32,000 nucleotides of DNA. Origin: Chlamydiota bacterium (GTDB taxonomy: Bacteria > Auribacterota > JACPWU01). The position numbers and the translations under genes are program-made. The notes under the pieces are model-generated. The model had not been told where the DNA came from, ran no database searches, and saw nothing but the letters and a program-made list of their open reading frames with translations. Of the stretch, positions 3,381 to 31,232 are shown piece by piece; the first letter of the stretch is position 1, and each line of letters starts with the position of its first letter. Location of the stretch: positions 30,001-62,000 of the forward strand of contig JACPWU010000038.1 in the NCBI GenBank assembly GCA_016196885.1, given 5' to 3'.

Positions 3381-3409
3381 TTGTCATAGGGCATTTGACA
3401 TTGTATAAT
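3381..3409 (+). promoter_or_regulatory. Putative sigma70-type promoter upstream of leuS
   Basis: TTGTCA (3381-3386), 17-nt spacer, TATAAT (3404-3409). This would leave only a ~6-nt leader before the leuS ATG, and no SD is visible. Confidence 0.35.
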
Positions 3410-3421
3410 CTCCCATCCTTT

Positions 3422-5920
3422 ATGGCCAAGGTCCCTTATTCTTTCAAAGAGATTGAATCCAAGTGGCAGCATTTTTGGGAGGAAGAACGTTCCTTCCATG
3501 CCACGGAAAAATCCACGCATCCCAAATTTTATTGTCTCGTGATGTTCCCTTATCCTTCGGGCCGTATTCACATGGGGCATGTGCGAAATTATGCCATCGG
3601 TGATGTAGTCGCTCGCTACAAACGCATGAAGGGATTCAATGTCCTTCATCCCATGGGTTGGGACGCCTTTGGCCTCCCCGCTGAAAATGCGGCGATCCAG
3701 CATGGGGTTCATCCTTCCGAGTGGACGTATGACAACATTGCCTTCATGAAGAATCAATTGAAGAAAATGGGCCTTTCCTATGATTGGTCTCGTGAGATTG
3801 CTACGTGCGATCCTTCTTATTATGGCTTAGAGCAAAGGCTTTTTCTCAAGATGTATGAAAAGGGCCTTGTATATAAGAGGCGCTCCTTTGTGAATTGGTG
3901 TTCGGATTGCGAGACCGTATTGGCCAATGAGCAGGTGGTGGACGGCCGATGTTGGCGTTGCGAGAGTGAAGTGACACAAAAGGATTTGGAACAATGGTTT
4001 TTTAAGATCACGGCCTATGCAGAAGAGTTGCTGCAGGATTTGGAAAAATTAAAAGAGGGCTGGCCGGAACGGGTTTTGACCATGCAGAGAAACTGGATTG
4101 GAAAATCCATGGGTGCGGAAATCCATTTTCCTGTGGTGGGTCGGAGTTCTGAATTTTTGAAAATTTTCACCACCCGAGTGGATACACTTTATGGCGTGAC
4201 TTTCATGAGCGTGGCGCCGGAACATCCTCAAATTTTGGAGTGGGTGAAGGGAACTTCTCAGGAATCTAGCGTTCGCGTCTTCGTTGAGAAGGTTTTAAAA
4301 GAGAGTCAGCGGGATCGCACGGATTTGACGCGGGAAAAGGAAGGCGTTTTTACAGGTGTTTATTGTGTTCATCCTTTGACTCAAGAGAACATTCCGGTTT
4401 ATGTGGCAAATTTTGTGTTGATGGAATACGGCACGGGGGCGGTGATGGCGGTTCCTGCGCATGATCAAAGAGATTTTGAATTTGCCAAAAAATACAACAT
4501 CCCCGTGAAAGTGGTGATTCAGCCTGAAGGAGAAATATTAGATTCCAAAACCATGACTCAAGCCTATGTCGAGGACGGCCTTCAGGCCCATTGCGGATCT
4601 TTCGATGGTTTGAAAAATCAGGAGGCGATTCTTAAAATCTCCGAATTTTTGGAAGAGAAAAAAATCGGTCAAAGAGTCGTCCATTACAAATTGAGAGATT
4701 GGGGGATTTCTCGCCAGCGTTATTGGGGGACTCCCATCCCTGTATTACATTGTCATACATGTGGGACCGTGCCAGTTCCGGAAGGCGATTTGCCCGTTCT
4801 TTTGCCCAAGGATGTGAAGTTTACGGGAATGGGTGCCTCTCCCCTGGCCGATCATGAAAGTTTTGTAAGGGCCCGGTGTCCCAAGTGTGGAGGCCCGGCC
4901 CGGCGTGAGACGGATACGATGGACACCTTTGTCGAATCTTCCTGGTATTTTGCCCGCTACACCTGTCCTCAATGCGATGAGCCTCTCGATGTTTCCAAGG
5001 TGAAATATTGGCTGCCCGTAGACCAATATATTGGCGGCATTGAACATGCGGTTCTACATTTACTGTATTCCCGGTTTTTCTCGAAGGTGTTGAGGGATTT
5101 AGGATTTCTAAAAGTGGATGAACCTTTTTCTCGTTTGTTGACTCAGGGGATGGTCATCAAAGATGGGGCGAAAATGTCCAAATCCAAGGGCAATGTCGTG
5201 GATCCCGACATGCTCATTGACCGATATGGGGCAGACACAGCCAGGCTCTTCAGTCTTTTTGCTGCGCCGCCTGAAAAGGATTTAGATTGGAATGATGAAG
5301 GGGTGGAGGGATCCTTTCGATTTTTGAAACGGGTTTGGACCAAGGTGAATGAATTTTTGGAGAAAAAATCTGGCGAAAATTCAAATGTTTCTCTTGATTC
5401 GATGGAGGGGATGACGGATCTTGAGAAAAAACTGTATCGCAAAACGCACTCTACGCTGAAGAAGGTTTCCCAGGATATTGAGGACGCCTATCATTTTAAT
5501 ACGGCCATCAGTGCAATTATGGAATTGGTGAATGAAATTTATCACTTCGACGTTGAGGAAAAACCTTCTTCTCGGGGGATGGCCATTTTGTCTGAGGCTC
5601 TCAAGATGGTGGTGATTCTTCTTTCGCCTTTTTGTCCGCATATCAGTGAAGAGTTGTGGGAGATGCTGGGAGAAAGTGACAGTGTAGGACAAGTGTCATG
5701 GCCACATTGGAACGAAAAAGTTCTTCAAGAAGACAGCATTGAAATTGTGATTCAAATCAATGGGAAGGTGCGAAGCCGTCTTCAAATAGCGCCCACCCTT
5801 TCTTCTTCTGAATTGGAAAAGAAAATTCTGGAGGACGAAAAGATTCAAAAATTTTTGAGCGGCGCCCGAGTGAAAAAGTTTATTCATGTTCCCAAGAAAT
5901 TGGTGAATGTGATTGTGTGA
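3422..5920 (+). CDS. leuS: Leucine--tRNA ligase
   Basis: HMGHVRNY (HIGH) and KMSKSKGN motifs, CP1 editing domain, zinc-type CxxC pairs. I prefer the ATG at 3422 ([21 protein letters not shown]). The ORF-track TTG at 3395 lies inside the predicted promoter. Confidence 0.97.
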
Positions 5921-6075: not shown

Positions 6076-6648
6076 ATGTTCCATCTTTCTCGCCAAGAGC
6101 GTTTCCTTCTTTTTGCGCTCGTCGCAGTTTTAGGGATCGGATCCTGTTTAATTGCGCTGAAGAGATTCGCGCATTGGGATCTTTTCAGCCAGCAAGAGCA
6201 TTGGCGAAAAGTAGAACCTTTGCCTCGTCATGAGGATTTGTGGGTGCTGGTGAAAGGAGCGGTGGAACATGAAGGAATTTATCATGTTCCTTTAGGGGCT
6301 CGCGTGGTCGAGGCCGTTCAAAAGGCGCGTCCCTTGGCAGAGGCTGATTTGATGGGGCTTCCCCTCGCTGATTTTGTGAAAGATGGCGAGACGCTGAACG
6401 TGCCTCGCATCGTTCCTCAAAATGATTCTCAAAAAGAAACGGTTGTCAGCGCTTCTTCCAAAATTAATATCAACACGGCCGATACCTTGCTTTTGGACCA
6501 TTTGCCGGGGGTGGGACCCCAATTGGCCGAGCGCATCATTGATTATCGCAAGGCCCATTCCTTTGATCGGATAGAGGACCTCTTGAAGGTTTCAGGCATT
6601 GGAAAAAAGAAATTTGAAGGGATGAAAGATGAGGTTTGTGTGAAATGA
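6076..6648 (+). CDS. comEA: Competence protein ComEA (SLBB domain plus helix-hairpin-helix DNA-binding domain)
   Basis: N-terminal TM segment, an SLBB-like VKGAVEHEGIYHVPLGARVVEAV, and a C-terminal ININTADTLLLDHLPGVGPQLAERIIDYR...LLKVSGIGKKKFE tandem HhH. SD GGGAGGGGG at 6060-6068. Confidence 0.9.
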   Translation: MFHLSRQERFLLFALVAVLGIGSCLIALKRFAHWDLFSQQEHWRKVEPLPRHEDLWVLVKGAVEHEGIYHVPLGARVVEAVQKARPLAEADLMGLPLADFVKDGETLNVPRIVPQNDSQKETVVSASSKININTADTLLLDHLPGVGPQLAERIIDYRKAHSFDRIEDLLKVSGIGKKKFEGMKDEVCVK

Positions 6649-7265
6649 AAAAGCAGAAGTCAGAAGACAGAAAACAGAATTCAGAAGACAGAAGTCAGAA
6701 GTCAGAAGTCAGAATAAAAGAAAACCTTATCCATTCTGGATTCTGGATTCTGACTTCTGTTTTCTATCTTCTGACTTCTATCTTTGTTATTCCTGTACAA
6801 GCGCTCAAAATCTCCGATTTTTATCAAGAGGCCAAGGTCGGCCAATGGATTTTGATGAAATCCAGTGATGGGCTTTTGACGCGGACGGCGGTGGTTGCAA
6901 AAGGAGACGGAAGGCTGACGTTGCGTATTCAAAATTTTAAGCAGGACCAGTTGATTTCAGATGCTCAAGAGACCTTCGATGTTGAAAAGGGGAAAATAAT
7001 TTCTGTGATGATTCAAGAGGGCAATCGCGTGAAAGAAATTCTTCCCAAGCAAACAGAGATGGATGATTTCTTTCAAGTGAATTTCCGCCTTTTAGGGGAT
7101 GAATCGGTACAGGTCGAAAAAGGGGACTTCCCTTGTAAGCGCTATAAGGGCATTTTCCGCGATCGTGTCGTGAAGGCCTGGATCAATGACGAAATCCCCA
7201 TTCTTCATTTGGTTAAGATGACGATGCAGGCGGTTGAGGTAGAGCTGGTGGATTATGGAGGATAA
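6645..7265 (+). CDS. Hypothetical exported or membrane-anchored protein (called X here) embedded between comEA and comEC
   Basis: The ATG at 6645 overlaps the comEA TGA (ATGA), and the stop overlaps the comEC ATG (TAATG). The N-terminus has a charged 30 aa stretch, then GFWILTSVFYLLTSIFVIPVQA, then a beta-rich ~150 aa domain. An alternative start at the ATG 6855 would remove the signal anchor. Confidence 0.6.
   Translation: MKKQKSEDRKQNSEDRSQKSEVRIKENLIHSGFWILTSVFYLLTSIFVIPVQALKISDFYQEAKVGQWILMKSSDGLLTRTAVVAKGDGRLTLRIQNFKQDQLISDAQETFDVEKGKIISVMIQEGNRVKEILPKQTEMDDFFQVNFRLLGDESVQVEKGDFPCKRYKGIFRDRVVKAWINDEIPILHLVKMTMQAVEVELVDYGG
6654..6788. repeat. Heptamer-array hairpin H1, word CAGAAGN
   Basis: Nine tandem 7-mers at 6654-6716: cagaagt cagaaga cagaaaa cagaatt cagaaga cagaagt x3 cagaata. 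A 16-nt loop follows. Then eight reverse-complement 7-mers at 6733-6788: attctgg attctgg attctga cttctgt tttctat cttctga cttctat ctttgtt. Confidence 0.9.
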
Positions 7266-9280
7266 TGAAACGTCCCCTTTTTTATCTTTCTCTTTTCTTG
7301 GCCTCAGGCATTTTCATTGCGCATTTTCTTCCCTTTAAATTCTCTTGGTTTTTCGCTTGTGTTTTCCTTCTGGGATTGGCTTGCCTCTTTTTTGTCCAGA
7401 AAGAGAAGACAGCACATCTTCTCCTTTACGCGCTTTTCTTTTTTCTCGGTGCCACCTTGTATGACCTTCGCACTTTTTTTCCTTCCCAGTGCCGCGTGGA
7501 CCAAATTGAATTTTTAAACGGGGAAATTTTTCTTCGCGGGGAAATTCAAAGAAGTGTGGAAATGGGAGGAAGAAAAAATGCCATCATACAGGCCGCTCAG
7601 GTAAAGGATCTTGAAAATCAATGGAAGGACGTGACGGGTTCTGTCTTGGTCAGGTTGCCAGAAAAAATCAAAGAGAATACAATGTATTCTCTTTGCGACT
7701 CGACCCTTTCAGGCAAAGTCATCAGGACCCCTTTTTCAAATGCTTCAAATTCTTCTGGATTTGACGAATGGTTAAAGGCCAATGGGATTTCCTTGGTGGT
7801 GGAGGTTTCAGATCCTAAAGATATTCAGGTCCAGGAAGGCCTTCGTCTCCATGGGGTGAAGCGCCTTCTCACTTCATTAAGGAATTGGGGCGCCGATCAT
7901 TTGACGCGGGGGCTTCCCGCAGATTCTTCTCTTTCCCATTTGTTGCTCGCGATGTTTTTGGGGATTCGAGAAAACTTGGGCACAGAGGTGAAAAACGCCT
8001 TTCTTTATACCAATACGGTTCACATCTTGTCTATTTCAGGTCTTCATCTGGGAATGATTTTGGCGATGGTGTTATTTGGGGTGGGCCTTTTTCCTGTTTC
8101 TAAAAGATGGGCTTCTGGAATCGCCTTGTTCATCATTTGGATTTATGCACTTTTGACGGGGATGGAACCTCCTATTGTCCGATCGGCCATCATGGCCTCT
8201 TTTTTTCTGGTGGGGCGCCTTGCGAGAATGAAAACGGATTTGGCGAATGCCTTGGGAGGAGCTGCCCTCTTGATGTTGATTGTCAATCCTCTTTCCCTTT
8301 TGGATATTGGATTCCAACTTTCCTTTTTATGCATGCTGTCCCTCGTTTTTCTCACGCCCAAAGTCGAAAAGGATTTTGAGCCCATCCATGGAATATTTTT
8401 TAAGACGCCCCTTGTTTTTTTATCGAGCTGGGAGAAAAATCTCTCTCGAGGATTTAATATGTTTATTAAAATTTTGAGTGGGTCGTGCGCGGTTTGGATA
8501 GGGGTGCTTCCCCTGATCGCCTATCATTTTCAGATTTTCTCACCCGTCACAGTTCTTGCAAATGTGATCGCTGTTCCTTGGACGAGCATGATCATGACAT
8601 TGGGATTTGCCAGTTGTGCCTTGGGCTGGATCCCAGGGGTGAGTCAAGCCTTGAATACGGTGAACGGACTTTTGCTGGGGGCCCTTGTAAAAATACTACA
8701 TTATTTTTCAAGCATCCCGGGGGCCTATCTTTTTGTCGAGCGCCCCACCTGGCTGTGGTTTTTTATTTATGATGCGGTCCTTCTCTCTTCTTTCTGGGCC
8801 AAGGGAAAAATCAAAAGTTCTTATTTTCTAATTTCTGCTTTTATTTGGGTGCCTCTTCTTTTTAAATCACCGGATCCTCATTCTTTAAGAATCAAGCTTT
8901 CGTCTCATGAGGTATCATTCCCTCAAGGGAGGGATGACCTTCAGGTATCTAAAACGTTTGATGAAAATGGAAGGTTGGAGACGATTCATTTCGAAAAAAA
9001 TTGGATTCATTGGGGTCTGAAGAATTTGGATCGGTTTTCGCCTCAAGAAAAAGGTTGGCTCGTGATGGATGATTCTTCCTCTGGGAATGAAGAGGCCCTG
9101 TTGAGGGCCGTAGATCGTCTCCCCGTGGCGGGTGTAGTTTTAGAAGACGGATCTTTTGACGCAAGCCTTTTCGCGTTGTTGAGAGACCGGGGGATCGAGA
9201 CCTTTCTCCTTCGAACAGGAATTCTCTTTGAATGGAAAACAGATGGAGAAAACTTTTGGGTTAAACGGGGTCAAACATGA
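7265..9280 (+). CDS. comEC: ComEC/Rec2 DNA internalisation channel protein, without a recognisable metallo-beta-lactamase domain
   Basis: 671 aa. N-terminal TM pair plus a DUF4131-like region, and a polytopic Competence domain (HILSISGLHLG, PPIVRSAIMA). The last ~140 aa show no HxHxDH motif. Confidence 0.85.
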   Translation: MKRPLFYLSLFLASGIFIAHFLPFKFSWFFACVFLLGLACLFFVQKEKTAHLLLYALFFFLGATLYDLRTFFPSQCRVDQIEFLNGEIFLRGEIQRSVEMGGRKNAIIQAAQVKDLENQWKDVTGSVLVRLPEKIKENTMYSLCDSTLSGKVIRTPFSNASNSSGFDEWLKANGISLVVEVSDPKDIQVQEGLRLHGVKRLLTSLRNWGADHLTRGLPADSSLSHLLLAMFLGIRENLGTEVKNAFLYTNTVHILSISGLHLGMILAMVLFGVGLFPVSKRWASGIALFIIWIYALLTGMEPPIVRSAIMASFFLVGRLARMKTDLANALGGAALLMLIVNPLSLLDIGFQLSFLCMLSLVFLTPKVEKDFEPIHGIFFKTPLVFLSSWEKNLSRGFNMFIKILSGSCAVWIGVLPLIAYHFQIFSPVTVLANVIAVPWTSMIMTLGFASCALGWIPGVSQALNTVNGLLLGALVKILHYFSSIPGAYLFVERPTWLWFFIYDAVLLSSFWAKGKIKSSYFLISAFIWVPLLFKSPDPHSLRIKLSSHEVSFPQGRDDLQVSKTFDENGRLETIHFEKNWIHWGLKNLDRFSPQEKGWLVMDDSSSGNEEALLRAVDRLPVAGVVLEDGSFDASLFALLRDRGIETFLLRTGILFEWKTDGENFWVKRGQT

Positions 9281-9298: not shown

Positions 9299-10708
9299 TT
9301 AAACCGCTTTCACAATCGTTAATGTCATATCGTCCATCTGGGGAATTCCGCCGGTAAAGCGGGAGATGCGGGAGAGGATGTTTTGGGCAATGTCTTGCGC
9401 GCTCAGATTAAATGCGCTGTGCACGGCTTCAGCCAAGGCCTCATAACCAAATTCATTTCCCTGGGCGTCTTGGGCCTCTGTGATGCCATCGGTGTAAAGA
9501 GCCAGAATATCTCCGGGTTCTAAAATGAGACTCACTTCCTCCAGCGTGGATGTGAAAAGAGGCCCCGCGTCCATTCCTAAGACAATTCCCTGCGGCCTTA
9601 GATATTGAACCTTTGACTCCTTTCTTTCAAAGAAAACAAGAGGCTCGTGACCTGCTCGAGTCAAGGTCAGTTTCTTTCGCTTTTCATCTAAAATTAAATA
9701 GGCCAGGCTGATAAACATGTCCTGTTGAATGTCTACGAAGAGGAGACGATTCAATTCCGAGAGCACTTGCCGGGGCGAGAGTTTTCCAGGGGCAGAGCTT
9801 CTCAAGATGCTTCTCGCCATTGTCATAACGAGGGCGGCAGGAATCCCTTTTCCAGAAACATCCGCGATGACAATCCCGTATTGGCCCTCACCTACCGGAA
9901 AAAAATCATAATAATCTCCTCCGATTTCCCGGGCTGGGCGGCTTAAGCCTCCGACATCAAAGCCCGTAAGCGTAGGAAGACCGGTGGGGAGAAGGAGGCG
10001 CTGGACTTGCATGGCTGTTTTTAATTCTTTGTCTAATCTTTCCTTCTCGGCAATGGTTCGATAAAGTTTGGCATTGTGAATGGATAAAGCAGCCTGATCG
10101 GCGAGGGCCTCCCAGAGGGAAAGATCCGTTTGCGAAAAGGTTTTTCCATCTTCCTTGTTGGCGGCCGCCATGATACCCATCACTTCTTCTTTAAAGATAA
10201 GAGGAACCGCCATGAGCGTTTTCACTTTGAGAAAATCAATGACCGGCTGTGTGATGCGGGAATCTGATACAGCATCTTGAATGAGAAGCGAAGCCCTTTC
10301 CTGGGCCACCCGGCCGAAAATGCCTTCTCCGAGGGGGATTTTGAGCCGCATGATTAAGTCTTGAATGTATTTGGCCTTGGTCGCCAGTTTCGAAAGGGAC
10401 TCTATGGGAATCGCCTCAAAGATAGGAGGAAAAAGGCCGTCCACCATTCCGGCGCTGAGATAATGGTGTTCTTCATCTAGGAGAAAAATAGCGCCGGAAG
10501 AGGCATTCAAGATGCGTCTGGAACTTGTGACAATCAATCTGAAGAGCTCGTCCAATTCGTGAGGGGATGTGAGGGCATCTCCGACTTCTCGGATGAAATG
10601 AAGGACAACCTCTTTCTCTTGGGAAAGCAATTGATGTGCCTTTCGAAGTTCAGAAAGAGAAAGCCAGGTGCGATGACAGAGCAAAGAGAGGAGAATGAGT
10701 CCGATCAA
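9299..10708 (-). CDS. GAF-domain PP2C (SpoIIE/RsbU-type) serine phosphatase
   Basis: N-terminal TM segment, central GAF-like region, and a C-terminal SpoIIE domain with GGDYYDF, ADVSGKGIPAAL, YTDGITEA and DDMTL. The first canonical start is the TTG at 10708. The frame stays open 15 codons further upstream, back to a TAAGGAG. Confidence 0.85.
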   Translation of the reverse strand: MIGLILLSLLCHRTWLSLSELRKAHQLLSQEKEVVLHFIREVGDALTSPHELDELFRLIVTSSRRILNASSGAIFLLDEEHHYLSAGMVDGLFPPIFEAIPIESLSKLATKAKYIQDLIMRLKIPLGEGIFGRVAQERASLLIQDAVSDSRITQPVIDFLKVKTLMAVPLIFKEEVMGIMAAANKEDGKTFSQTDLSLWEALADQAALSIHNAKLYRTIAEKERLDKELKTAMQVQRLLLPTGLPTLTGFDVGGLSRPAREIGGDYYDFFPVGEGQYGIVIADVSGKGIPAALVMTMARSILRSSAPGKLSPRQVLSELNRLLFVDIQQDMFISLAYLILDEKRKKLTLTRAGHEPLVFFERKESKVQYLRPQGIVLGMDAGPLFTSTLEEVSLILEPGDILALYTDGITEAQDAQGNEFGYEALAEAVHSAFNLSAQDIAQNILSRISRFTGGIPQMDDMTLTIVKAV

Positions 10709-13143: not shown

Positions 13144-13554
13144 ATGAAGCAATGTCTCATGTTAGGTGTCATGTCTGTGATTGCTTTAATGATGGCAGGT
13201 TGCAGTGATTTTGAGGATCCGACGAAGAAAATAAGTTTGGAGACGGTGGTAGGAGGAGGTCCTTCCCTGAAGCTGGGAATGACAAAAGATGAGGTGAAGG
13301 CGAGCTGGGGAAATCCGGACAATGTCAAGGCGACCGGAGAAAATCGATGGGGAGCTCCTAGGGAAGAGTGGACGTATCACGCTTGGTTTCCCGTGGTTCC
13401 CGTGAATTATAAATATGTTTCTAAGGGCCGGCGTCTTTTCTTTGAGGGAGATGCCTTGGTGAAGTGGGAGGAGACTGAAGTAGAACAAACGAAGACAGAA
13501 GACAGAGGTCAGAAGACAGAGACTTCAACGAAGGAACCAGAAACTCAAAATTAA
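13144..13554 (+). CDS. BamE/SmpA-OmlA-like lipoprotein with a low-complexity tail
   Basis: Lipobox LMMAGC, and GMTKDEVKASWGNPDNV typical of the SmpA_OmlA domain. The C-terminal tail TKTEDRGQKTETSTKEPETQN is encoded by heptamer arrays. Confidence 0.65.
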   Translation: MKQCLMLGVMSVIALMMAGCSDFEDPTKKISLETVVGGGPSLKLGMTKDEVKASWGNPDNVKATGENRWGAPREEWTYHAWFPVVPVNYKYVSKGRRLFFEGDALVKWEETEVEQTKTEDRGQKTETSTKEPETQN

Positions 13555-13574
13555 AAACTCAAAACTTGAAACTG
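13489..13574. repeat. Two adjacent unpaired heptamer arrays H2 (CAGAAGN-type, then AAAACTN)
   Basis: 13489-13523: acgaaga cagaaga cagaggt cagaaga cagagac. 13540-13574: gaaactc aaaatta aaaactc aaaactt gaaactg. No complementary arm nearby. The arrays span the stop of the lipoprotein gene and the TTG start of the next gene. Confidence 0.8.
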
Positions 13575-15074
13575 AGTGTCGGGCGCCATTTAGTCATTGG
13601 CATTCATGGAATAAAAGTAGACCCAAGGTTGAAATCTTTTTTGAAAAAGATTCAACCTTCGGGTCTTATTTTTTTCTCAAGGAATATTGTTTCACTTGAG
13701 CAATTCCGTTCTTTCCTTTCTGATTTAAGAGAAGGGGTGGGTGAGGAAGTTTTTTTTGCCTTGGATCACGAAGGAGGATGGGTCGAGAGATTTTCGCATG
13801 AGAGTGAAAAAGGACTTTCTCTGACCTCTTTTCCAGGAAATACGGCTTTAGGAAAGGCGGGACGGCTGGACTGGGCTCATGATCAGGGCCGCACGATGGC
13901 CGCCCAGCTTAAGGCGCTCGGCGTTCAGGTGAATTTTGCCCCTGTTTTGGATGTGTTATGTGATAGGAGCGACAATTCTGGGATTGGGATTCGGTCTTTT
14001 GGGAAGGATCCTGATCTTGTAGCAAATTTAGGTGAGGCCATGATTCGCGGCCTTCAGGAAAATGGGATCGCTGCGACCGCCAAGCATTTTCCTGGGCACG
14101 GTCCCTGTCGGATAGATCCTCACGATCAATTGCCTTATGTCAGGGCTTCTCAAAGGGAATTGGAAGAAATTCATTTAAGGCCTTTTCGCAAGGCGGTGGA
14201 TGCGGATGTGACCTTCGTGATGACGAGCCATGGGGTTTTCTCCGAATGGGATGAACTCCCCACCACTTTTTCAAGCCACATCGTGCAAGGAATTTTGAGA
14301 AAAGAGTTGTCTTTTCAAAATATTATTTTGTCCGACGATTTGGAAATGGGAGCGATGACGAAGAGATTTTCATTTCAGGAAATGGTTCTTCGTCCTCTTC
14401 AAGCGGGCCATGATTTTATTTTGATTTGTCATGATGCAAATCGGATCCGCGAGGCACATCAAATTTTAGAAAAGGCTTATGATGAGAAGCTTTTTCAATT
14501 CGAGAATTTAGAGAAAAGTATTTTGAGATTGAAAGAAGTGATGAAATCTTTTTCTGGGAAAGAGGTGAGGACTCTTGAGAATCCCAAGGGATTGGCCTCT
14601 CAAATTGCGAAGGGATCGGTAGAGCTTGTTCAAAGAGGGAAAGTGGCAGGAAGAGAAAGAGCGATTGTTTTTATTCCAGATTTTCATCGGCTTTCGGAAC
14701 GCTATTTTTTTGAAGCCCGGCTTCTCGATTCGTCCTCTTTTTTTGAGATGTGTTTTTCCGATTTTGGGCAGACCCTTGAAAAAATAGTTTTGAATTTAGA
14801 AAGGGGTTTACCAGATTCCTTCTTTTCAAAATGGTCTTCACAAGACCCCGCGGTCTTTTTTTGCTTCGATGCCCATGGGTCTTCTTCGGAAAAGAAGGTA
14901 TTGCAGGATTTTCAAAAACATTTTAAAAAGGGTGCAGTTATTTTGCTCAAAAATCCTTTGGATTTGAAATACGTGGCAAAGGAAGTCCCTTGCATTCAGA
15001 CCTATGGTTTTCGATGTTGTCAGATTAAACAGGCGATAGAAGTTTTAAATACGGCAATGAAAATGAGTCCATAG
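13566..15074 (+). CDS. nagZ: Glycoside hydrolase family 3 beta-N-acetylhexosaminidase (NagZ-like) with an extra ~170 aa C-terminal region
   Basis: KHFPGHG, SDDLEMGA and FAPVLDV motifs of the GH3 N-terminal domain. The only in-frame start near the conserved N-terminus is the TTG at 13566, inside the repeat and without an SD. Confidence 0.8.
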   Translation: MKLSVGRHLVIGIHGIKVDPRLKSFLKKIQPSGLIFFSRNIVSLEQFRSFLSDLREGVGEEVFFALDHEGGWVERFSHESEKGLSLTSFPGNTALGKAGRLDWAHDQGRTMAAQLKALGVQVNFAPVLDVLCDRSDNSGIGIRSFGKDPDLVANLGEAMIRGLQENGIAATAKHFPGHGPCRIDPHDQLPYVRASQRELEEIHLRPFRKAVDADVTFVMTSHGVFSEWDELPTTFSSHIVQGILRKELSFQNIILSDDLEMGAMTKRFSFQEMVLRPLQAGHDFILICHDANRIREAHQILEKAYDEKLFQFENLEKSILRLKEVMKSFSGKEVRTLENPKGLASQIAKGSVELVQRGKVAGRERAIVFIPDFHRLSERYFFEARLLDSSSFFEMCFSDFGQTLEKIVLNLERGLPDSFFSKWSSQDPAVFFCFDAHGSSSEKKVLQDFQKHFKKGAVILLKNPLDLKYVAKEVPCIQTYGFRCCQIKQAIEVLNTAMKMSP

Positions 15075-15152
15075 TCCACGGTCCATAGTCCATAGAAATA
15101 AATGATTCCTTTAAAGCTGTGGACTATTGACTATGGACTGTAGACTGTTTTT
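15067..15152 (+). terminator. Heptamer-array hairpin H3 (word GTCCATA) acting as a rho-independent terminator
   Basis: Left arm gtccata gtccacg gtccata gtccata (15067-15094), 22-nt loop, right arm ctgtgga ctattga ctatgga ctgtaga ctg (15117-15147), then TTTTT (15148-15152). The nagZ-like TAG stop lies inside the first unit. Confidence 0.7.
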
Positions 15153-15202
15153 ATCCACTTGAGTGGACGAAAGTTTGTGGAGAAGGTTATTGAGTAAATA
15201 AT

Positions 15203-19555: not shown

Positions 19556-19805
19556 ATCAAAATCCAAAAATGGAAGTAAGAACAAAAACTCTTGTGCGTA
19601 GTAGTTTTTCCCTCCCCTTAAGACGACCGAGTCCGGGTACCCGCCGCAGCGGGTGGACGAGGAAGTGGTTGAAGTCGAGAGACGAAAACCATAAGGGGAG
19701 ATGGAGAGGTTATGAGATTGCTCGCATAACTCCCCCATCCCCTCTTAACTTAAGAGGGGAGAAAAACCTTCATTTTGCATTTTGATTTTTGAATTTTGAT
19801 TTTAT
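19556..19805. repeat. Heptamer hairpin H5 (word AAAATCC / CATTTTG) whose arms are split by a ~190-nt GC-rich structured insert
   Basis: Left arm atcaaaa tccaaaa atg (19556-19572). Right arm cattttg cattttg atttttg aattttg attttat (19771-19805). 19557-19571 pairs with 19785-19799 with one mismatch. Insert stems: CTCCCCTTA (19612-19620) / TAAGGGGAG (19692-19700); ACCCGC cgca GCGGGT (19639-19654); CCCCTCTTAA c TTAAGAGGGG (19739-19759). Confidence 0.8.
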
Positions 19806-20779: not shown

Positions 20780-22460
20780 GATTATTTGTGCAACCCTCTC
20801 AGGTGTTTTAGAAAAAGCCTTGCTCAAGCTGAAGGATTCGGGAAAGATTTCTTTTGAGACGCTTTCCCAGATTCGGGTCGAGCCGACGAAGGATCCCAAG
20901 TTTGGGGATGTCTCGACCAACGTGGCGATGGCGATGGCGGCTCAAGCAAACCTTCCGGCGCCTCGTTTGGGGGCCTTGCTCGTCGAGGTGTTGAAAGAGG
21001 CTTCTTTCAATGGTGTTGTGGAGTCGGTTGAAGTGGCAGGCCCGGGGTTTATCAATTTTCGTTTGGGGAGGGATCCTTGGATCGAGGTGTTGGCTGAGAT
21101 TTTAAAGAGCGGCGCAGGCTATGGAAAATCCTCTTTGGGTCAGGGGAAAAAAATCTTGATCGAATTTGTGAGTGCAAACCCGACAGGGCCTTTGACCTTA
21201 GCGCATGGCCGCCAGGCAGCGGTGGGAGACAGCCTGGCTCGGATCATGAAGACTTCTGGTTTTCAAGTTCACAAAGAATATTATTTGAATGATCGGGGTC
21301 GGCAAATGTCAGTTTTGGGTCGCTCGGTTTATTTAAGGTATCAAGAATGTTTTGGAAAAAAAATCACCTTTCCGGAGGATTTTTATCAAGGCGATTATAT
21401 TTTGGATTTGGCCAAGGAGGTGGTTGAAAAAGAGGCAGATCGCTTTTTGAAGGAAGATGAAAAGGACGCGGTCGAGTTTTTTTCAAAATATGCAGGCGAT
21501 CGGATTATGGAGGACATTCGAAAGGATTTAAGTGATTTTGATGTGGAATTTGATCATTATTTTAGCGAGCGGGCCTTTGTGGCGACGGGACGGGTGGAGG
21601 CTTGTTTGAATGAGCTTAAAAAGAAGGGCTATACCTACGAGCAAGAGGGAGCCTTGTGGCTGCGCTCAACCCCTTTTGGGGATGACAAGGATCGCGTGCT
21701 GATTAAAAGCTCAGGGGAGATGACATACATTAGTCCGGATGCCGCTTATCACGAAGATAAATTGCGCCGTGGTTACGATGAGGTGGTGGATATTTGGGGG
21801 CCTGATCATCATGGATACATCCCGCGGTTAAAGGCGGCGGTGGCGGCCCTGGGGCAAAATCCAGAGCGTCTGAAGGTGATTATTCTGCAATTGGCCACTC
21901 TGTTTGAAGGAGGGCAAAAGCTTTCGATGTCCACGCGTCGTGGCGAGTATGTGACGCTGAGACAAATTATGGATGAAGTGGGAAAGGATGTGGGGCGGTA
22001 TTTCTTTTTGATGAGAAAGACGGATAGCCATTTGGATTTCGATTTGGAATTGGCAAAAAAAGAGTCTCTCGAAAATCCAGTGTATTATATTCAATATGCG
22101 CATGCCCGGATTTCCAGCATTTTTGAAAAATACATGCGTGAAAGCGGCTCTCATGAAGAGATAGGTTTAAATTCTCTTTCCTGTTTAAAGACTTTGGAAA
22201 AAGAAGAGGTGGAATTAATTAAAAGGCTGGGTCTTTTTCAAGAGGTGTTGGAGGGATGCTGTCACTCTTTAGATCCTTATCCCTTGACGGATTATTTATT
22301 GAAAGTGGCGCAGAGTTTTCATCAATTTTATACGCAGCATCGGGTGATTTCGGAGTCTCAGGAGAAGACACAGGGGCGCTTGGCCTTGGTGAAGGCGGTG
22401 AAGATTGTCTTGAGAAATGGGCTAGGGCTTTTGGGTGTGAATGCGCCGGAGGCGATGTAA
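20772..22460 (+). CDS. argS: Arginine--tRNA ligase
   Basis: SANPTGPLTLAHGR (HIGH variant), MSTRRG, and a C-terminal DALR anticodon-binding domain. Overlaps the rsfS 3' end by 8 nt. Confidence 0.96.
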   Translation: MNKIICATLSGVLEKALLKLKDSGKISFETLSQIRVEPTKDPKFGDVSTNVAMAMAAQANLPAPRLGALLVEVLKEASFNGVVESVEVAGPGFINFRLGRDPWIEVLAEILKSGAGYGKSSLGQGKKILIEFVSANPTGPLTLAHGRQAAVGDSLARIMKTSGFQVHKEYYLNDRGRQMSVLGRSVYLRYQECFGKKITFPEDFYQGDYILDLAKEVVEKEADRFLKEDEKDAVEFFSKYAGDRIMEDIRKDLSDFDVEFDHYFSERAFVATGRVEACLNELKKKGYTYEQEGALWLRSTPFGDDKDRVLIKSSGEMTYISPDAAYHEDKLRRGYDEVVDIWGPDHHGYIPRLKAAVAALGQNPERLKVIILQLATLFEGGQKLSMSTRRGEYVTLRQIMDEVGKDVGRYFFLMRKTDSHLDFDLELAKKESLENPVYYIQYAHARISSIFEKYMRESGSHEEIGLNSLSCLKTLEKEEVELIKRLGLFQEVLEGCCHSLDPYPLTDYLLKVAQSFHQFYTQHRVISESQEKTQGRLALVKAVKIVLRNGLGLLGVNAPEAM

Positions 22461-22466
22461 AAAACC

Positions 22467-22535
22467 CGTGCATCGTGCTTCGTACATCGAACATCGAAAA
22501 AACAGTGCGATGTACGATGTTCGATGCACTGTACT
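22467..22535. repeat. Heptamer-array hairpin H6 (word CGTNCAT / CGATGTN)
   Basis: Left arm cgtgcat cgtgctt cgtacat cgaacat cgaaaaa (22467-22501), 6-nt loop, right arm cgatgta cgatgtt cgatgca ctgtact (22508-22535). It ends immediately before the SD GGAGGG at 22537-22542. Shares the 13-mer CGTGCTTCGTACA with H11. Confidence 0.9.
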
Positions 22536-22545
22536 TGGAGGGAAA

Positions 22546-22824
22546 ATGATAGAGGTTCGTTTGGATGAATTACCGAATGGGTATGAGAGCGCGACGGTAG
22601 AGTTTTGGTTTGTGGAGGAAGGGGATCGCGCAACAGAAAGTGGCAAATTTGTTAAGTTGAGCATGGATGGGAAGCCTTTTATTTTTACGTCGCCGGCGAC
22701 AGGGGTGGTGAGTGAAATTTATTGCGATGAAGGAGAGGAAATTTCTTTGGGTGAGGTGATCGCCGTTTTGGAACCAGAGCGAGAGAAAGAGGAGGAAGTA
22801 GAAGAGTTGGAGGAAATGGATTGA
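22546..22824 (+). CDS. Small acidic protein with a biotinyl/lipoyl-like (barrel-sandwich hybrid) domain
   Basis: 92 aa from the ATG at 22546. VEEGDRATESGKFVKLSMDGKPFIFTSPATGVVSEIYCDEGEEISLGEVIAVLE follows the lipoyl-domain pattern, but the canonical attachment Lys position appears to hold Gly (MDGK). Glu-rich tail. Stop overlaps the next start (TTGA). Confidence 0.5.
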   Translation: MIEVRLDELPNGYESATVEFWFVEEGDRATESGKFVKLSMDGKPFIFTSPATGVVSEIYCDEGEEISLGEVIAVLEPEREKEEEVEELEEMD

Positions 22825-23957
22825 AAAGAGTTCTCATTTTCTACATCTCTGTCAATTCAGGACATCATGTGGCAGCACGGGCCATTGAAAATGCACTTTT
22901 GAGGCAGGACGACACTTTAGAAATTTTGAATATCAATGCCCTGAATTACATCAGTCCCCTTTTGGAAAAGTTGGTGATCAAGACTTACATGGGGGTGGTT
23001 AAGAATACCCCTGAGCTTTGGGAATATTTGTATGACAATTCGAAGGTGAAAGAGAAGCTCTCGAAGTTTAGAGAGATGGCCCATCGCCTCAATTCTTCTC
23101 GGCTGATTCAACTGGTGGGTGATTTTCGTCCCGATGTAGTGATTTGTACCCAGGCCTATCCTTGCGGAGTCCTGGCCTCCTATAAGGCTGAACATCCAGA
23201 CAGCTTTGCCTTGGTGGGGGTTGTCACGGATTATGTGGCGCATTCTTATTGGGTATTAAATGAAGTGGATCTTTTTGCGGTTCCTACGGAATTGACTCGG
23301 CAAAGGCTCATCGATTCTGGTATTGCTCAAGAGCGGGTGTTGGTTTTAGGCATCCCTGTAGATCCCGTTTTCAGCCGTAAACTGGATCGTAAGCTTTTGA
23401 AATCCTGGCATGGCATTCCTGAAGATCGCTCGGTGGTCCTGGTGATGGGGGGTGGGCAAGGTCTCATTCCCCTTCGTGAAATTGTGATGGCGCTTCAAGA
23501 AGTGAGACACCCGATTCATATTATTGCTGTGACGGGCCGCAATACCTCTTTAAAAGCCAAGCTCAAGGCCGTTCGAAAAAAATGTCGAACCCCTCTCACG
23601 GTTTATGGTTATGTGAATGACATTGATGTGTTGATGGAGATGGCGGATCTTTTGATCAGCAAGCCGGGGGGCTTGACCAGTTCAGAGACTTTGGTGAAGA
23701 GGCTGCCCATGATTATTTTTAAACCCCTACCCGGGCAAGAGTCCAAGAATTGTGAATTCTTAGTGGAGAGCGAGGCAGCCTTGAAAGTAGATCAGGTAGA
23801 TGAAATTCCCGCATTGGTCGAAGATTTGGTCAAGCATCCTGAGAACATGGAAAGAATTCGTTCGAACATTGATTTGTTGAGAAAGCCCCAAGCCGCGATG
23901 AACATTGCAAAAGCTGTTTTTGAGAGCGTACAGCGTGTAGGATTCAGCGGACAGTAG
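22821..23957 (+). CDS. GT28 glycosyltransferase, MGDG-synthase / UgtP-like diacylglycerol glycosyltransferase
   Basis: 378 aa. N-terminal MGDG_synth-like region (ILIFYISVNSGHHVAARAIENAL) and C-terminal GT28 region (VLVMGGGQG, ISKPGGLTSSE). TTG start at 22821. Confidence 0.8.
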   Translation: MKRVLIFYISVNSGHHVAARAIENALLRQDDTLEILNINALNYISPLLEKLVIKTYMGVVKNTPELWEYLYDNSKVKEKLSKFREMAHRLNSSRLIQLVGDFRPDVVICTQAYPCGVLASYKAEHPDSFALVGVVTDYVAHSYWVLNEVDLFAVPTELTRQRLIDSGIAQERVLVLGIPVDPVFSRKLDRKLLKSWHGIPEDRSVVLVMGGGQGLIPLREIVMALQEVRHPIHIIAVTGRNTSLKAKLKAVRKKCRTPLTVYGYVNDIDVLMEMADLLISKPGGLTSSETLVKRLPMIIFKPLPGQESKNCEFLVESEAALKVDQVDEIPALVEDLVKHPENMERIRSNIDLLRKPQAAMNIAKAVFESVQRVGFSGQ

Positions 23958-24004
23958 AAAGAATCAAAACTGTACGCTGTCCGCTGAACGCTATACGCTT
24001 CCTT
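23925..24004. repeat. Heptamer-array hairpin H7 (word AGCGNAC / CTGNNCG)
   Basis: Left arm agcgtac agcgtgt aggattc agcggac agtagaa (23925-23959; it encodes the last 10 aa and the stop of the GT28 gene). Loop. Right arm ctgtacg ctgtccg ctgaacg ctatacg cttcctt (23970-24004). A perfect 12-bp core TTCAGCGGACAG / CTGTCCGCTGAA. Confidence 0.9.
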
Positions 24005-24015
24005 TCGGATCTATC

Positions 24016-24894
24016 ATGCTGCTGGCAGTGCTCTATCACATCTTAAGGTGGATTGTGAATGTATTCCCTTTCTCTTGGGGGATGAAATTATTTTCTGCCT
24101 CTTTTGCCTTCGGATATTGGTTTTGCCCTCAAAGACGTCGCATCATTGAAGAAAATCTTTCCGTCATCTTGCCAAATACGAATCTTGAAAAAAACGTGAA
24201 GGAAGTTTTTGCTTTTTTTGGTCGCTACTTGGCGCTTTTTTTAAGCTCTACGAAGAGAAAAGAAAATTTGAGAAGGATGACGAGAACGCAAGGGCTTGAA
24301 AATCTCATTCGTCCTTATCAGGGGGGGAGAGGGGTGATTGCCTTAACTGCTCATTTGGGCAATTGGGAAATGGGGGCGTATTTGGTTGTCCGCGAGGGGA
24401 TGAAGGTGAGCGCCGTTTTCATGAATCATGACAATGATCGAGCCAATCGTTTGTTCATCGCCCAAAGAGATGTGCCAGGTTTGACGGTGATCCCTTGGGG
24501 GGATCATGCGACCTCCAAATGTTTGGAGGCATTGAAGGCGGGTCACGTTTTAGCCATTGCGGGCGATATTGATTTTTTGGGAAATGGAATGGAGGTCAAT
24601 CTTTTCGGGAAAAGGGTGCGAATTCCGAAAGGGCCCATTGTTCTTGCAAAGAGAAGGGGAGTTCCGATTGTGCCCGGAGGATATGTTTGGACGGATTCGG
24701 GAGGACTTTTTTTCTTTGAGAACCCCATTTTATCGGAAGGTCTTTCAGAAGAGATGTTGGCCAGTCGTGTCGCTGGGGCCCTCGAAAAAATGATTCGGAA
24801 ATATCCAACGCAGTGGTTGTGTTTTGAGAGGATGTGGAAGATAAAGAATCCAAAATCCAAAAATCAAAATGACTCTTTGCAAGAGTCATTTTAA
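24016..24894 (+). CDS. LpxL/HtrB-family lysophospholipid or lipid A-type acyltransferase
   Basis: 292 aa. LTAHLGNWEM (HX4E acyltransferase motif of the Lip_A_acyltrans family) and an N-terminal membrane segment. Confidence 0.8.
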   Translation: MLLAVLYHILRWIVNVFPFSWGMKLFSASFAFGYWFCPQRRRIIEENLSVILPNTNLEKNVKEVFAFFGRYLALFLSSTKRKENLRRMTRTQGLENLIRPYQGGRGVIALTAHLGNWEMGAYLVVREGMKVSAVFMNHDNDRANRLFIAQRDVPGLTVIPWGDHATSKCLEALKAGHVLAIAGDIDFLGNGMEVNLFGKRVRIPKGPIVLAKRRGVPIVPGGYVWTDSGGLFFFENPILSEGLSEEMLASRVAGALEKMIRKYPTQWLCFERMWKIKNPKSKNQNDSLQESF

Positions 24895-25068
24895 ATTTTG
24901 ATCTGTCATTTTGATTTTTGCTATGAAAGTGAGGCTCATTTTGTAGTCGCCCCATTTATGGGGCTGCCCGATGAATCGGGCGACTACAAAAAAAGCATGA
25001 TGGGGAGAACTTTCATCGCACACGATGATCTCGAAAGATCATTGGAATTGATATTTGAATTTTGGATT
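24847..25068. repeat. Composite island H8: heptamer arms (AAAATCC / ATTTTGN) enclosing nested palindromes and REP-like copy 2
   Basis: Left arm aatccaa aatccaa aaatcaa (24847-24867). Perfect 12-bp palindrome AAAATGACTCTT tgc AAGAGTCATTTT (24866-24892). 13-nt ATTTTGATTTTTG (24908-24920) is complementary to the left arm. REP module at 24943-24987. Hairpin GATGATCT cgaa AGATCATT (25024-25043). Distal arm TTGAATTTTGGATT (25055-25068) is complementary to 24847-24860 with one mismatch. Confidence 0.85.
24943..24987. repeat. REP-like multi-hairpin module, copy 2 (two hairpin units)
   Basis: GTAGTC [GCCCCA ttta TGGGGC] t [GCCCGA tgaa TCGGGC] GACTAC. The same 6-bp clamp and terminal unit as copy 1. 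Confidence 0.85.
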
Positions 25069-25786: not shown

Positions 25787-26423
25787 TCGGTTGGACGAAA
25801 AGGAGAAAATGATCCGCGAACAATTGGTTGCTCGTGGGATCGAAGATACACGGGTGCTGGAAGCGTTTCGCGAAGTGCCTCGACATCTTTTTGTGCGTGA
25901 GAAAGATTTGCCACAGGCTTATGAAGATCATCCCATTCCCATTGGAGAGGGGCAAACCACCTCTCAAACCTATATGGTAGCGGCCATGCTGGAGCTCCTG
26001 GAACTCGAGGTTAATGAAAAGGTCTTAGAAATTGGAACAGGATCCGGATATGAATCGGCGTTGTTGTCTAGACTTGCTCGGGAAGTCTATACCATCGAGA
26101 GATTGAGGACTTTGTACGAAAGTGCACAAGACAAATTAAAAAAAATGGGGTATGTTAATATCCATTTTAAATGGGGGGATGGTTCTCTCGGTTGGTCCGA
26201 TAAATCTCCTTTTCAGGCGATTGTGATTGGGGCGGCAGCGCCTCAGATTCCTCCCGTTCTGATGAATCAATTAGATGAAGGGGGACGTTTGGTTTTGCCT
26301 GTGGGCGATCGCAAAGAACAGATTTTGACGCGTGTGACCCGCGGGGGTGATGACTTTAAAATCGAAAAATTCATGACCTGTATTTTTGTCCCCCTGATCG
26401 GGGAAGAAGGATGGAAAGAATAG
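25764..26423 (+). CDS. pcm: Protein-L-isoaspartate O-methyltransferase
   Basis: VPRHLFV, a QTTSQTYMVA-type region, VLEIGTGSGY (SAM motif I) and FVPLIG. Overlaps the GT2 3' end by 23 nt. Confidence 0.93.
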   Translation: MPDPLGDDRLDEKEKMIREQLVARGIEDTRVLEAFREVPRHLFVREKDLPQAYEDHPIPIGEGQTTSQTYMVAAMLELLELEVNEKVLEIGTGSGYESALLSRLAREVYTIERLRTLYESAQDKLKKMGYVNIHFKWGDGSLGWSDKSPFQAIVIGAAAPQIPPVLMNQLDEGGRLVLPVGDRKEQILTRVTRGGDDFKIEKFMTCIFVPLIGEEGWKE

Positions 26424-26441
26424 TTATAAAAAGAATAGTTA

Positions 26442-26504
26442 TAAGTTTTAAGTTCTAAGTTTTAAAGGAGTTTATTTTTTTACTTACAACTTACAACTTC
26501 TAAC
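26442..26504. repeat. Heptamer-array hairpin H9 (word TAAGTTN / ACTTACA)
   Basis: Left arm taagttt taagttc taagttt (26442-26462), T-rich loop, right arm acttaca acttaca acttcta ac (26482-26504). Preceded by a 15-nt direct repeat agaatagttataaaa x2 (26417-26446) that contains the pcm stop. Confidence 0.85.
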
Positions 26505-26512: not shown

Positions 26513-26587
26513 CGGGGTGTGGCTCAGCCTGGCTAGAGCGCTTGGTTCGGGACCAAGAGGCCGGCGGTTCAAATCCGCCCACCCCGA
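26513..26587 (+). tRNA. tRNA-Pro (anticodon CGG)
   Basis: Hand-folded cloverleaf. Acceptor CGGGGTG/CACCCCG, D arm GCTC-AGCCTGGCTA-GAGC, anticodon arm CTTGG-TTCGGGA-CCAAG, 5-nt variable loop, T arm GGCGG-TTCAAAT-CCGCC, discriminator A. CCA is not encoded. Confidence 0.95.
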
Positions 26588-26602: not shown

Positions 26603-26660
26603 AGGGTCAGGGGTCATCTATGAAAACGTCTTTTTTTCCTGACCCTTGACCCTTGACCCT
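26603..26660. repeat. Heptamer-array hairpin H10 (word AGGGTCA / CTTGACC)
   Basis: Left arm agggtca ggggtca (26603-26616), loop, right arm tgaccct x3 (26640-26660). Same word family as H12. Confidence 0.85.
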
Positions 26661-26671
26661 TGGATGAAAAC

Positions 26672-31213: not shown

Positions 31214-31232
31214 AATAAAAGGAGGGTTTCAT

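Follow-up and report, generated by a model that had tools for sequence, protein, structure and literature searches.

Gene X and the heptamer hairpin at its start

The window analysed here is the whole 32,000-nt stretch taken from contig JACPWU010000038.1 of a Chlamydiota bacterium (GCA_016196885.1). It contains, between the competence genes comEA and comEC, a short gene that we call gene X. A hairpin of about 130 nt, built of 7-nt repeats and named H1, lies inside the start of X. The features of the locus and of H1 are as follows.

3395-5920: leuS, upstream of comEA in the window
6076-6648, plus strand: comEA, 190 amino acids (aa), with an HHH_3 domain and a weak SLBB match
6631-6635, plus strand: Shine-Dalgarno-like GAGGT, 9 nt 5′ of the ATG at 6645, putative in function
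6645-7265, plus strand: gene X, 206 aa, between comEA and comEC, the same protein as P0001 (MBI1883013.1)
6645-6653, plus strand: ATGAAAAAG (MKK), the ancestral n-region; H1 starts right after it
6654-6716, plus strand: left arm of H1, purine-rich, nine 7-nt units of the CAGAAGT family, encoding QKSEDRKQNSEDRSQKSEVRI
6689-6709, plus strand: perfect (CAGAAGT)3, the longest perfect tract
6717-6732, plus strand: loop region, encoding KENLI
6733-6784, plus strand: right arm of H1, pyrimidine-rich, about 7.4 units, encoding the uncharged h-region (H)SGFWILTSVFYLLTSI
6785-6803, plus strand: non-repeat c-region FVIPVQA, with a predicted signal-peptidase site after A53 (6801-6803)
6804-7262, plus strand: mature domain of X, all-beta, a LolA/LolB-like half-barrel with a predicted local distance difference test score (pLDDT) of ~90-95
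7263-7267, plus strand: TAATG, in which the stop of X overlaps the start of comEC
7265-9280, plus strand: comEC, 671 aa, with DUF4131 and Competence domains
Downstream of comEC, minus strand: a GAF-SpoIIE gene

The original prediction held that both arms of H1 are translated from the ATG at 6645, and most of its description of the locus was confirmed. The ATG (6645-6647) overlaps the comEA stop TGA (6646-6648) as ATGA, and the frame is open across both arms and into the 206-aa open reading frame (ORF), whose start is annotated identically at NCBI. The 7-aa periodic peptides are exact: KSEDRKQ NSEDRSQ KSEVRIK from the left arm and GFWILTS VFYLLTS IFVIPVQ from the right arm onwards, followed by A↓LK (the arrow marks the predicted cleavage site). 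The three perfect CAGAAGT units and the TAATG coupling lie where they had been placed. Two details needed correction. The frame of X was said to be the only one that avoids stops, but frame +2 is also stop-free (6647-6860), and the stops across H1 (TAA 6715, TGA 6751 and TGA 6772) are all in frame +1. The TAA, reported at 6714-6716, occupies 6715-6717, where it straddles the boundary of arm and loop out of frame.

The 7-nt unit arrays of H1 extend over 6654-6716 and 6733-6784. Tandem Repeats Finder (TRF) reported period-7 arrays at 6654-6714 (CAGAAGT, 8.7 copies, 87% matches) and 6733-6779. The arms 6664-6715 and 6733-6784 are 79% complementary across a 17-nt loop, and complementarity reaches 87% in the register 6655-6700 / 6734-6779. 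The minimum free energy of the RNA was −73.3 kcal/mol against −39.0 ± 3.8 kcal/mol for shuffled sequences (z = −8.96), and none of 200 shuffles matched it. In the minimum-free-energy fold the Shine-Dalgarno-like GAGGT is paired to 6797-6800, at the base of the extended stem. H1 was not flagged in a terminator scan; the stem is A/U-rich and is followed by CUUUGUUAUUCC, so it does not resemble an intrinsic terminator. Against Rfam 15 at the gathering score the sole match in the window was the tRNA at 26513-26587, and H1 was unmatched. No duplicated flank or target-site duplication was seen at the junctions AAAAAG/CAGAAG and CTATCTTTG/TTATTCC; the inverted repeat of H1 consists of its entire arms.

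P0001, annotated at NCBI in a metagenome-assembled genome named 'Chlamydiae bacterium', is 100% identical to X over 206 aa. Besides this identical protein, database searching with X returned 17 homologues of 172-207 aa, and a scan of metagenomes for relatives of X returned one locus only. Names attached to the related loci include Candidatus Auribacterota and Ca. Theseobacter exili, within the Planctomycetes-Verrucomicrobia-Chlamydiae (PVC) group. A Pfam scan of X gave no family. The AlphaFold model is an all-beta half-barrel with a mean pLDDT of 86 (90-95 in the mature part). Its top PDB match was C. trachomatis CT021 (6uxd; E 2e-5, template modelling score 0.59), followed at lower rank by LolA, LolB, MucB and ependymin-type lipid-binding folds. 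From this model, X is predicted to be a conserved secreted LolA-like protein of the periplasmic type, and such a fold needs an export signal. CT021 is itself uncharacterised in Chlamydia trachomatis. In most related loci X is encoded between comEA and comEC, and in Ca. Theseobacter it lies directly 3′ of leuS. X may be an uncharacterised partner of the DNA-uptake machinery.

Orthologues of X and the export signal encoded by the arms

The orthologue set comprised 18 proteins, P0001 and P0002 with the hairpin and 16 without it. The conserved mature protein begins with LKISDFY, encoded from 6804 in the window, within the extended block LKISDFYxxAKVGQWILMKS. All 16 hairpin-less orthologues carry a classical signal peptide of 19-23 aa whose cleavage site aligns as xxA↓LK. 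In these ordinary signals M-K/R-K is followed by a run of 10-19 uncharged residues; position −1, just ahead of L/V-K/R-I-S-D, is a small residue, which is Ala in 10 of the 16. The Met at 6855, which had been offered as a possible alternative start, is M71 of X; it is invariant and internal in the alignment, preceded by 17 residues, LKISDFYxxAKVGQWIL, that are conserved in 18/18 orthologues. A start at 6855 was therefore excluded.

That X might start 3′ of H1 at 6855 or elsewhere, leaving H1 as an untranslated intercistronic element, could be argued from the other heptamer hairpins of the window, most of which are intergenic or do no more than cut into gene ends. Frames across hairpins of this kind are also open by default, as in the database ORF P0020, and the sister locus described below has an in-frame ATG just 3′ of its hairpin. 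These points are contradicted by the block upstream of M71 and by the signal peptide that every hairpin-less orthologue carries. The window has no in-frame ATG, GTG or TTG between H1 and the mature N-terminus and no canonical in-frame start anywhere in 6654-6804, and the ATGA-overlapped MKK start is conserved with hairpin-less loci. We consider an untranslated H1 extremely improbable. Translational bypassing of the hairpin was rejected by reasoning, because the h-region would be lost.

The same hairpin position was found in one sister genome, GCA_016178055.1 (locus L001, protein P0002). Its LeuS is 74% identical to that of the window genome, the order leuS-comEA-X-comEC-SpoIIE is kept, and its hairpin (arms 10005-10071 / 10083-10135; −86.8 kcal/mol, z = −8.7) lies at the same place and in frame. 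The hairpin is absent from the start of X in L004, L005, L006, L008, L012, L013 and L014, whereas the ATGA junction is kept in the hairpin-less L004, L005, L006, L008, L012 and L013. In L006 X directly follows leuS, again with an ATGA overlap. L004 has the same 9 nt (ATGAAAAAG) as the window, together with the preceding 14 nt; AAGGTTTGTGTGAAATGAAAAAG is common to both as far as the last base ahead of the first repeat unit, after which L004 has ordinary h-region codons. As the insert is missing from all outgroup proteins, the hairpin is a derived feature. A neighbour-joining tree places P0001 with P0002, on a short branch. Their signals differ by 3 nt, which is not a multiple of 7, so the frame was kept while the arrays changed.

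On the alignment, the in-frame sister copy, the derived state of the insert and the lack of a downstream start in the window, translation of both arms from the ATG at 6645 is the only reading that would leave X exportable. H1 is thus best read as a derived in-frame insertion whose arms now provide the predicted n- and h-regions of X. In this respect the claim that H1 is translated and supplies both regions of the export signal stood up well against the 18 orthologues and the sister copy.

The signals encoded through H1 are 53 aa (P0001) and 52 aa (P0002) long, compared with about 20 aa in relatives. Both have a net charge of +3 over residues 1-26 and an uninterrupted run of uncharged residues, 27 and 24 respectively. 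The Kyte-Doolittle maxima of the hairpin-encoded cores (2.5-2.85 in an 11-residue window and 2.06-2.42 in a 19-residue window) fall within the range of the 16 ordinary orthologues. Residues −3 and −1 are small or neutral, V-Q-A↓LK in the window and V-E-A↓LK in L001, and they align column by column with xxA↓LK of the orthologues. In length the signals do not agree with a Sec-type signal of ~18-30 residues, as they have 53 and 52 residues with hydrophobic cores of 20-24. Inspected by eye, the N-terminal sequences of X contained neither a twin-arginine motif nor a lipobox cysteine at +1, as would mark Tat substrates or lipoproteins. The signal may be a cleaved signal peptide, to which the conserved V-x-A↓LK site and, in the window, a Pro at −5 point. 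It may equally be an uncleaved signal anchor, to which the length of the signals and their 20-24-residue cores point.

The character of the two arms follows from their base composition. The second codon base sets hydropathy, so that a purine-rich strand encodes polar and charged residues and its complement hydrophobic ones (PMC2206014). A or G at the second codon positions of the purine-rich arm yields a stretch of 23 residues of Lys, Arg, Glu, Asp, Ser and Gln, and T or C at those of the complementary arm yields an uncharged hydrophobic core of 20-24 residues. Both arms of H1 show exactly the split described for complementary strands. That literature concerns opposite strands, whereas in H1 the two 'strands' are read in series from one mRNA and independently of frame. 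Each frame of a 7-nt array reads all seven circular triplets every 21 nt, and the amino-acid content of the array is therefore the same in any frame. The hydropathy argument of the original prediction thus holds whatever the frame. For example, the unit GAAGACA reads as EDRRQKT and its complement TGTCTTC as CLLSSVF, with no stop and no charge; CAGAAGT reads as QKSEVRS and its complement ACTTCTG as TSDF-stop-LL. Arrays of GAAGACA and of TGTCTTC have zero stops in any frame, so an uninterrupted frame across such a hairpin says little about coding by itself.

Heptamer hairpins in the two genomes and beyond

H1 shares its architecture with about ten loci of the window. About ten further period-7 arrays with many different units were found there, most of them paired as hairpins at gene ends; their folding energies are −15 to −40 kcal/mol, several of them begin at the stop of the upstream gene or overlap it, and none had an Rfam match. 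The arrays and two of the hairpins are listed here.

13491-13573, 15066-15148, 19772-19803, 22467-22529, 23932-23999, 24847-24900, 26415-26499 and 31170-31196: period-7 arrays
15066-15148: hairpin that starts at the stop codon of a GH3-like gene
26437-26499: heptamer hairpin with a tRNA gene directly after it (26513-26587; Rfam, 66 bits)

The density of period-7 arrays, counted per 10 kb, was 6.2 for the window, 5.2 for L001 and ~0-1.5 for L004, L005, L006, L012, L013 and L014. The 1.1-kb L008, of the P0007 lineage, carries one heptamer hairpin (807-877; CTCGTTG / CGAGTGA units; −37.8 kcal/mol, z = −4.65), which lies in the 88-nt spacer between X and comEC. In its close relatives L013 and L014 this spacer has no significant fold. 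Boundary hairpins thus recur at different junctions of the operon.

One hairpin type with AGTCCAY units is orthologous in both genomes after the GH3-like gene (window 15055-15160, L001 18331-18432). A second copy in L001, at the non-orthologous position 14988-15058, has the same loop, AGAAATAAAT..TCCTTTAAAAC, and the same flanks, TGAAAATGAG ... TTTTnATC. The AGTCCAY type therefore behaves as a dispersed element similar to a miniature inverted-repeat transposable element (MITE). Relatives of the unit of H1 itself were found only in the array at 13491-13520 and in two foreign ORFs, P0020 and P0021.

These two ORFs were among the 4 matches of an exhaustive phmmer search with the 53-aa N-terminus; a word-indexed search with the same peptide gave no match, its own protein included. 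In P0020 (SRR6185295) the ORF runs through a (GAAGACA)n hairpin and in frame into a canonical GAPDH start (MKRIAINGFGRIGR), so that the gene call lengthens a cytoplasmic GAPDH by ~170 residues; P0021 comes from JGI. Both are probably spurious ORFs through (GAAGACA)n-type hairpins. The fusion in P0020 indicates that repeats of this kind leave a frame open by default. (GAAGACA)n-type hairpins occur beyond the two genomes and cause annotation artefacts.

Besides insertion, an origin in place was considered for H1, in which the T/C-rich codons of the ancestral h-region slipped into an array and a template switch copied them inverted upstream, so that the hairpin would descend from the signal peptide. 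In orthologues the h-region is encoded by T/C-rich sequence of low complexity, and a TRF repeat is already present in L008 at 287-316. The junctions carry no terminal duplication or insertion scar, and the c-region TTATTCCTGTACAAGCG is still like TTATTTGTACAG...CAAGCT of L004. Against this, heptamer hairpins form a genome-wide class in exactly the two genomes that have H1, at least one type of them is dispersed, and units of the GAAGACA / CAGAAGA family are found again in the array at 13491-13520 as well as in unrelated ORFs from databases. An origin from the signal peptide itself is accordingly rated as distinctly unlikely.

The suggestion that repeat hairpins are exapted as export signals as a rule was not borne out. 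X is a single locus, and no other hairpin of the window or of L001 is read as an N-terminal signal.

A few further arrays of the window touch coding sequences. The lipoprotein-like ORF 13144-13554 (N-terminus MKQCLMLGVMSVIALMMAGCSD) has a tail, KTEDRGQKTETSTKEPETQN, that comes from four GAAGACA units of the H1 unit family. This (GAAGACA)4 array at 13491-13520 is read as KTEDRGQKTET and is a second heptamer array read as protein, here C-terminal. ORFs 22441-22824 and 31179-31712 begin inside or upstream of heptamer hairpins (22441-22545 and 31179-31235), and their first ~20-35 residues look non-native (MRRRRCKKPVHRASYIEHRKNSAMYDVRCTVLGGK... and MYEVRCFVFWYLIKGGFH...); their true starts are probably downstream Met codons. 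Just 5′ of an ORF block starting at 26660 lies (TGACCCT)x3.3 at 26640-26662, and after the stop of the ORF ending at 31712 lies (AGGGTCA)x2.3 at 31711-31726. The two units are exact reverse complements, and the arrays, ~5 kb apart, form a long-range inverted pair around four same-strand ORFs.

Stem stability, unit number and the proposed history of H1

In a synonymous-recoding test the peptide was fixed and synonymous codons were resampled in 500 recodings. The window stem folded at −59.7 kcal/mol versus −35.5 ± 4.8 kcal/mol for the recoded sequences (z = −5.1), and the L001 stem at −82.2 versus −43.9 ± 5.7 kcal/mol (z = −6.7). In both cases 0/500 recodings were as stable. The stability of the stem exceeds what the encoded peptide calls for. 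Between window and sister, 4-fold degenerate sites are 32-38% identical against 27% by chance, which is near saturation, and ~50 paired positions are kept in the stem of each genome. In L001, 10 of the 12 arm mismatches at the DNA level are G.U on the sense strand, and the sense RNA folds at −82 kcal/mol against −55 kcal/mol for the antisense; the window arms have no such sense-strand asymmetry. A two-sequence consensus fold kept 41 pairs, 4 of which have changed on both sides, a weak result since the alignment within repeats is ambiguous. The stem structure is either selected or continually regenerated.

Traces of coding constraint were sought in the right arm. An exact complement of the left arm of the window would place a TGA in all three frames. 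In the right arm TGAC is left only in the units at 6747 and 6768, where the phase gives CTG-ACT; the five remaining junctions between units read TGGA, TGTT or TATC, and both the stop and the Asp codon are gone. In simulations with random substitutions a stop-free and charge-free right arm arose in 3-15% of trials (p ~0.03-0.15). The phase-specific loss of TGA and GAC is suggestive but not decisive. A 21-nt super-period was rejected as a signature of evolution in frame, as autocorrelation at lag 21 was not above that at lag 7 in any arm.

H1 could be translated and yet be a merely tolerated selfish or neutral insertion, in the manner of the Rickettsia palindromic elements, that has no role as RNA or DNA, its stem reflecting either youth or continuing slippage and conversion among the units. 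The AGTCCAY type, dispersed at non-orthologous sites with conserved loop and flanks as in a MITE, sets an example for such behaviour. The arrays have also been homogenised differently, the right arm of L001 being 93% TGTCTTC and the left arm of the window rich in CAGAAGT. Signal peptides are moreover the most sequence-tolerant part of a secreted protein, with h-regions that are unalignable. However, the hairpin persists at one site in two genomes whose 4-fold sites are saturated, and its stability is far beyond the reach of synonymous recodings. The L001 mismatches are biased to sense-strand G.U, and orthologous intergenic hairpins are conserved too (window 15066, L001 18331). We regard a neutral insertion as possible but somewhat unlikely.

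The account that we hold to be highly probable is that a hairpin of the lineage class settled after the MKK codons of X, that both arms serve as its export signal and that the stem has been kept. In the common ancestor of the window genome and GCA_016178055.1, a heptamer hairpin would have come to lie right after the MKK codons, by insertion or by growth in place, and would have displaced most of the ancestral hydrophobic core. With both arms translated, the purine-rich one would extend the n-region to a net charge of +3 and the pyrimidine-rich one would form the core. The old c-region and V-x-A↓LK site appear to be retained, and with the arms supplying the n- and h-regions we propose that the LolA-like protein is still exported, either cleaved or anchored. 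The stem would be maintained as a nucleic-acid structure beyond the needs of the peptide. Since the ATGA overlap leaves no spacer between comEA and X, the signal-peptide codons may have been the nearest tolerant host for a boundary hairpin.

As to a role of the stem, the mRNA structure of −60 to −80 kcal/mol would begin 9 nt after the AUG, with its foot paired to the GAGG upstream. Ribosomes terminating on comEA might melt the base of the stem, so that X, and then comEC through TAATG, would be tied to comEA. H1 may also be an intercistronic stability or processing element, either like the repetitive extragenic palindromic (REP) sequences or as a substrate for a double-strand-specific RNase. 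A bolder version takes heptamer palindromes as functional mRNA elements specific to these Auribacterota-like bacteria and placed at gene boundaries. Copies whose arms split into purine and pyrimidine, such as GAAGACA / TGTCTTC, would be cassettes of n- plus h-region, with H1 gating X and comEC. In that version X and the DNA-uptake channel comEC would be gated by strict coupling to comEA or by processing of the RNase III type. We consider it unlikely. If true, H1 would be a signal peptide caught in the act of replacement by a regulatory hairpin, and export signals could be born from palindromic non-coding DNA by a general route.

Several points weigh against the preferred account of an inserted, translated and maintained hairpin. 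A 53-aa signal with a 26-aa n-region is atypical, and export and cleavage of X are predicted from hand-applied rules and orthology. The high complementarity could come from recent or concerted turnover of the repeats instead of structural selection. The loss of TGA and GAC in the right arm has weak significance, and the 21-nt super-period is absent. Because the branch that joins P0001 and P0002 is short, two independent insertions at one site could be imagined. A signal-less product is conceivable in L001, where an in-frame ATG-GTG follows the hairpin (MVSSVEA↓LK). The roles of H1 in translational coupling and as an mRNA element are pure conjecture.

The closest known counterparts of H1 are the Rickettsia palindromic elements (RPEs) and other intragenic MITEs, which are inserted in frame into protein-coding genes (PMC10969869). 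Like an RPE, H1 is a palindrome of ~130-150 nt within an ORF, absent from orthologues, translated with the frame kept, in a genome rich in such elements. RPE families, however, have a consensus, whereas the copies of the H1 class share their architecture of 7-nt units and inverted arms and mostly not their sequence. RPE peptides are extra surface segments, whereas H1 replaces a functional module, the n- and h-regions. Unlike a MITE, H1 lacks the signature of a terminal inverted repeat with a target-site duplication.

Heptamers are an abundant class of prokaryotic repeats, of which the direct TAACTGA heptanucleotide repeats occur in cyanobacteria and Beggiatoaceae (PMC4679880). The same paper derives the peptide that a translated heptamer repeat would give, which is periodic with 7 aa. 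The H1 class likewise consists of tandem 7-nt units, mainly at gene boundaries and in particular lineages. In contrast, the TAACTGA repeats are direct repeats of one heptamer, intergenic and mostly upstream of starts, whereas the H1 class has many heptamers arranged as long inverted repeats in an Auribacterota-like lineage of the PVC group, and its H1 copy is coding.

The predicted signal resembles Sec-type and extended signal peptides in its positive n-region, uncharged core and small residues at −3 and −1. It differs from the Sec type in having 52-53 aa versus ~20, and in a 7-aa periodicity that stems from complementary arms, and its export is a prediction; it has no homology to known extended regions. 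REP sequences and bacterial interspersed mosaic elements (BIMEs) are intercistronic hairpins that stabilise upstream mRNA segments in operons. H1 is similarly a stable stem-loop at a gene boundary in an operon and one of many gene-end copies, but it lies inside a coding sequence, has no sequence relation to them and is presumptive in function.

A limited literature search brought up no earlier case of a palindromic repeat that encodes a signal peptide, and such absence is not proof. What is new here is that a heptamer-repeat palindrome supplies the signal-peptide module, and that the states before and after are both preserved among orthologues, the 16 hairpin-less proteins as 'before' and the two genomes as 'after'. 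H1 is a clean natural case in which a palindromic repeat has taken over the encoding of a functional protein module. Through sense/antisense hydropathy, an inverted repeat with its purine-rich arm first resembles an export signal whichever frame is read. By itself, an uninterrupted frame across such a hairpin does not show coding; the extended GAPDH of P0020 is an example. The locus also shows that an mRNA hairpin of very high stability (−60 to −80 kcal/mol) can persist in the first 50 codons of a conserved gene. As a construct, the X locus would allow tests of the length and periodicity that a functional signal peptide can have, and it draws attention to heptamer hairpins as an undescribed and abundant class in a PVC lineage that has hardly been studied.

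The original prediction had further proposed a phase-variation design. Its arithmetic is right, as the unit length is not a multiple of 3 and a simulated gain or loss of one unit leads to early stops or an out-of-frame product. The design itself was not supported; the array has at most three perfect units, every full-length copy is in frame and no length variant was found among the assembled copies. Phase-variable contingency loci with simple-sequence repeats are known, e.g. in Haemophilus and Moraxella (PMC12721329, PMC4679880). Like these, H1 has a unit not divisible by 3, close to the 5′ end of an ORF, with an RNA hairpin present. It differs in that its tract is short and imperfect and in that no length polymorphism was observed among the assembled copies.

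A switch in which slippage of 7-nt units toggles X, and comEC by polarity or coupling, would fit the clear turnover of the arrays between species. It could also be read from the Logan contigs of the window strain (L009, L010 and L011). Two of them, from different samples, end at one base, 6710, in or at (CAGAAGT)3, and the third starts at 6684, 27 nt upstream of that break; no repeated 31-mer in the sequence would force a contig to break. However, neither genome has more than 3 perfect units in a row, and the arrays have 74-93% matches. Both species are in frame and differ by 3 nt, not by units. Since most heptamer hairpins of this genome are non-coding, the 7-nt period belongs to the class as a whole and is no design specific to X. 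The full-length copies, which are two NCBI accessions for each of P0001 and P0002 and Logan contigs L002 and L003 for the sister, come from independent assemblies and are all identical and in frame. We judge such a switch to be very unlikely.

Whole-unit duplications and deletions of 1-99 nt and single-nucleotide polymorphisms were modelled, and none gave both ends, 6710 and 6684; a 28-nt duplication came within 1 nt of the observed contig ends. The breaks in the window strain could reflect a drop in coverage at the hairpin or heterogeneity of the population. The Logan contigs of the sister run straight through its hairpin.

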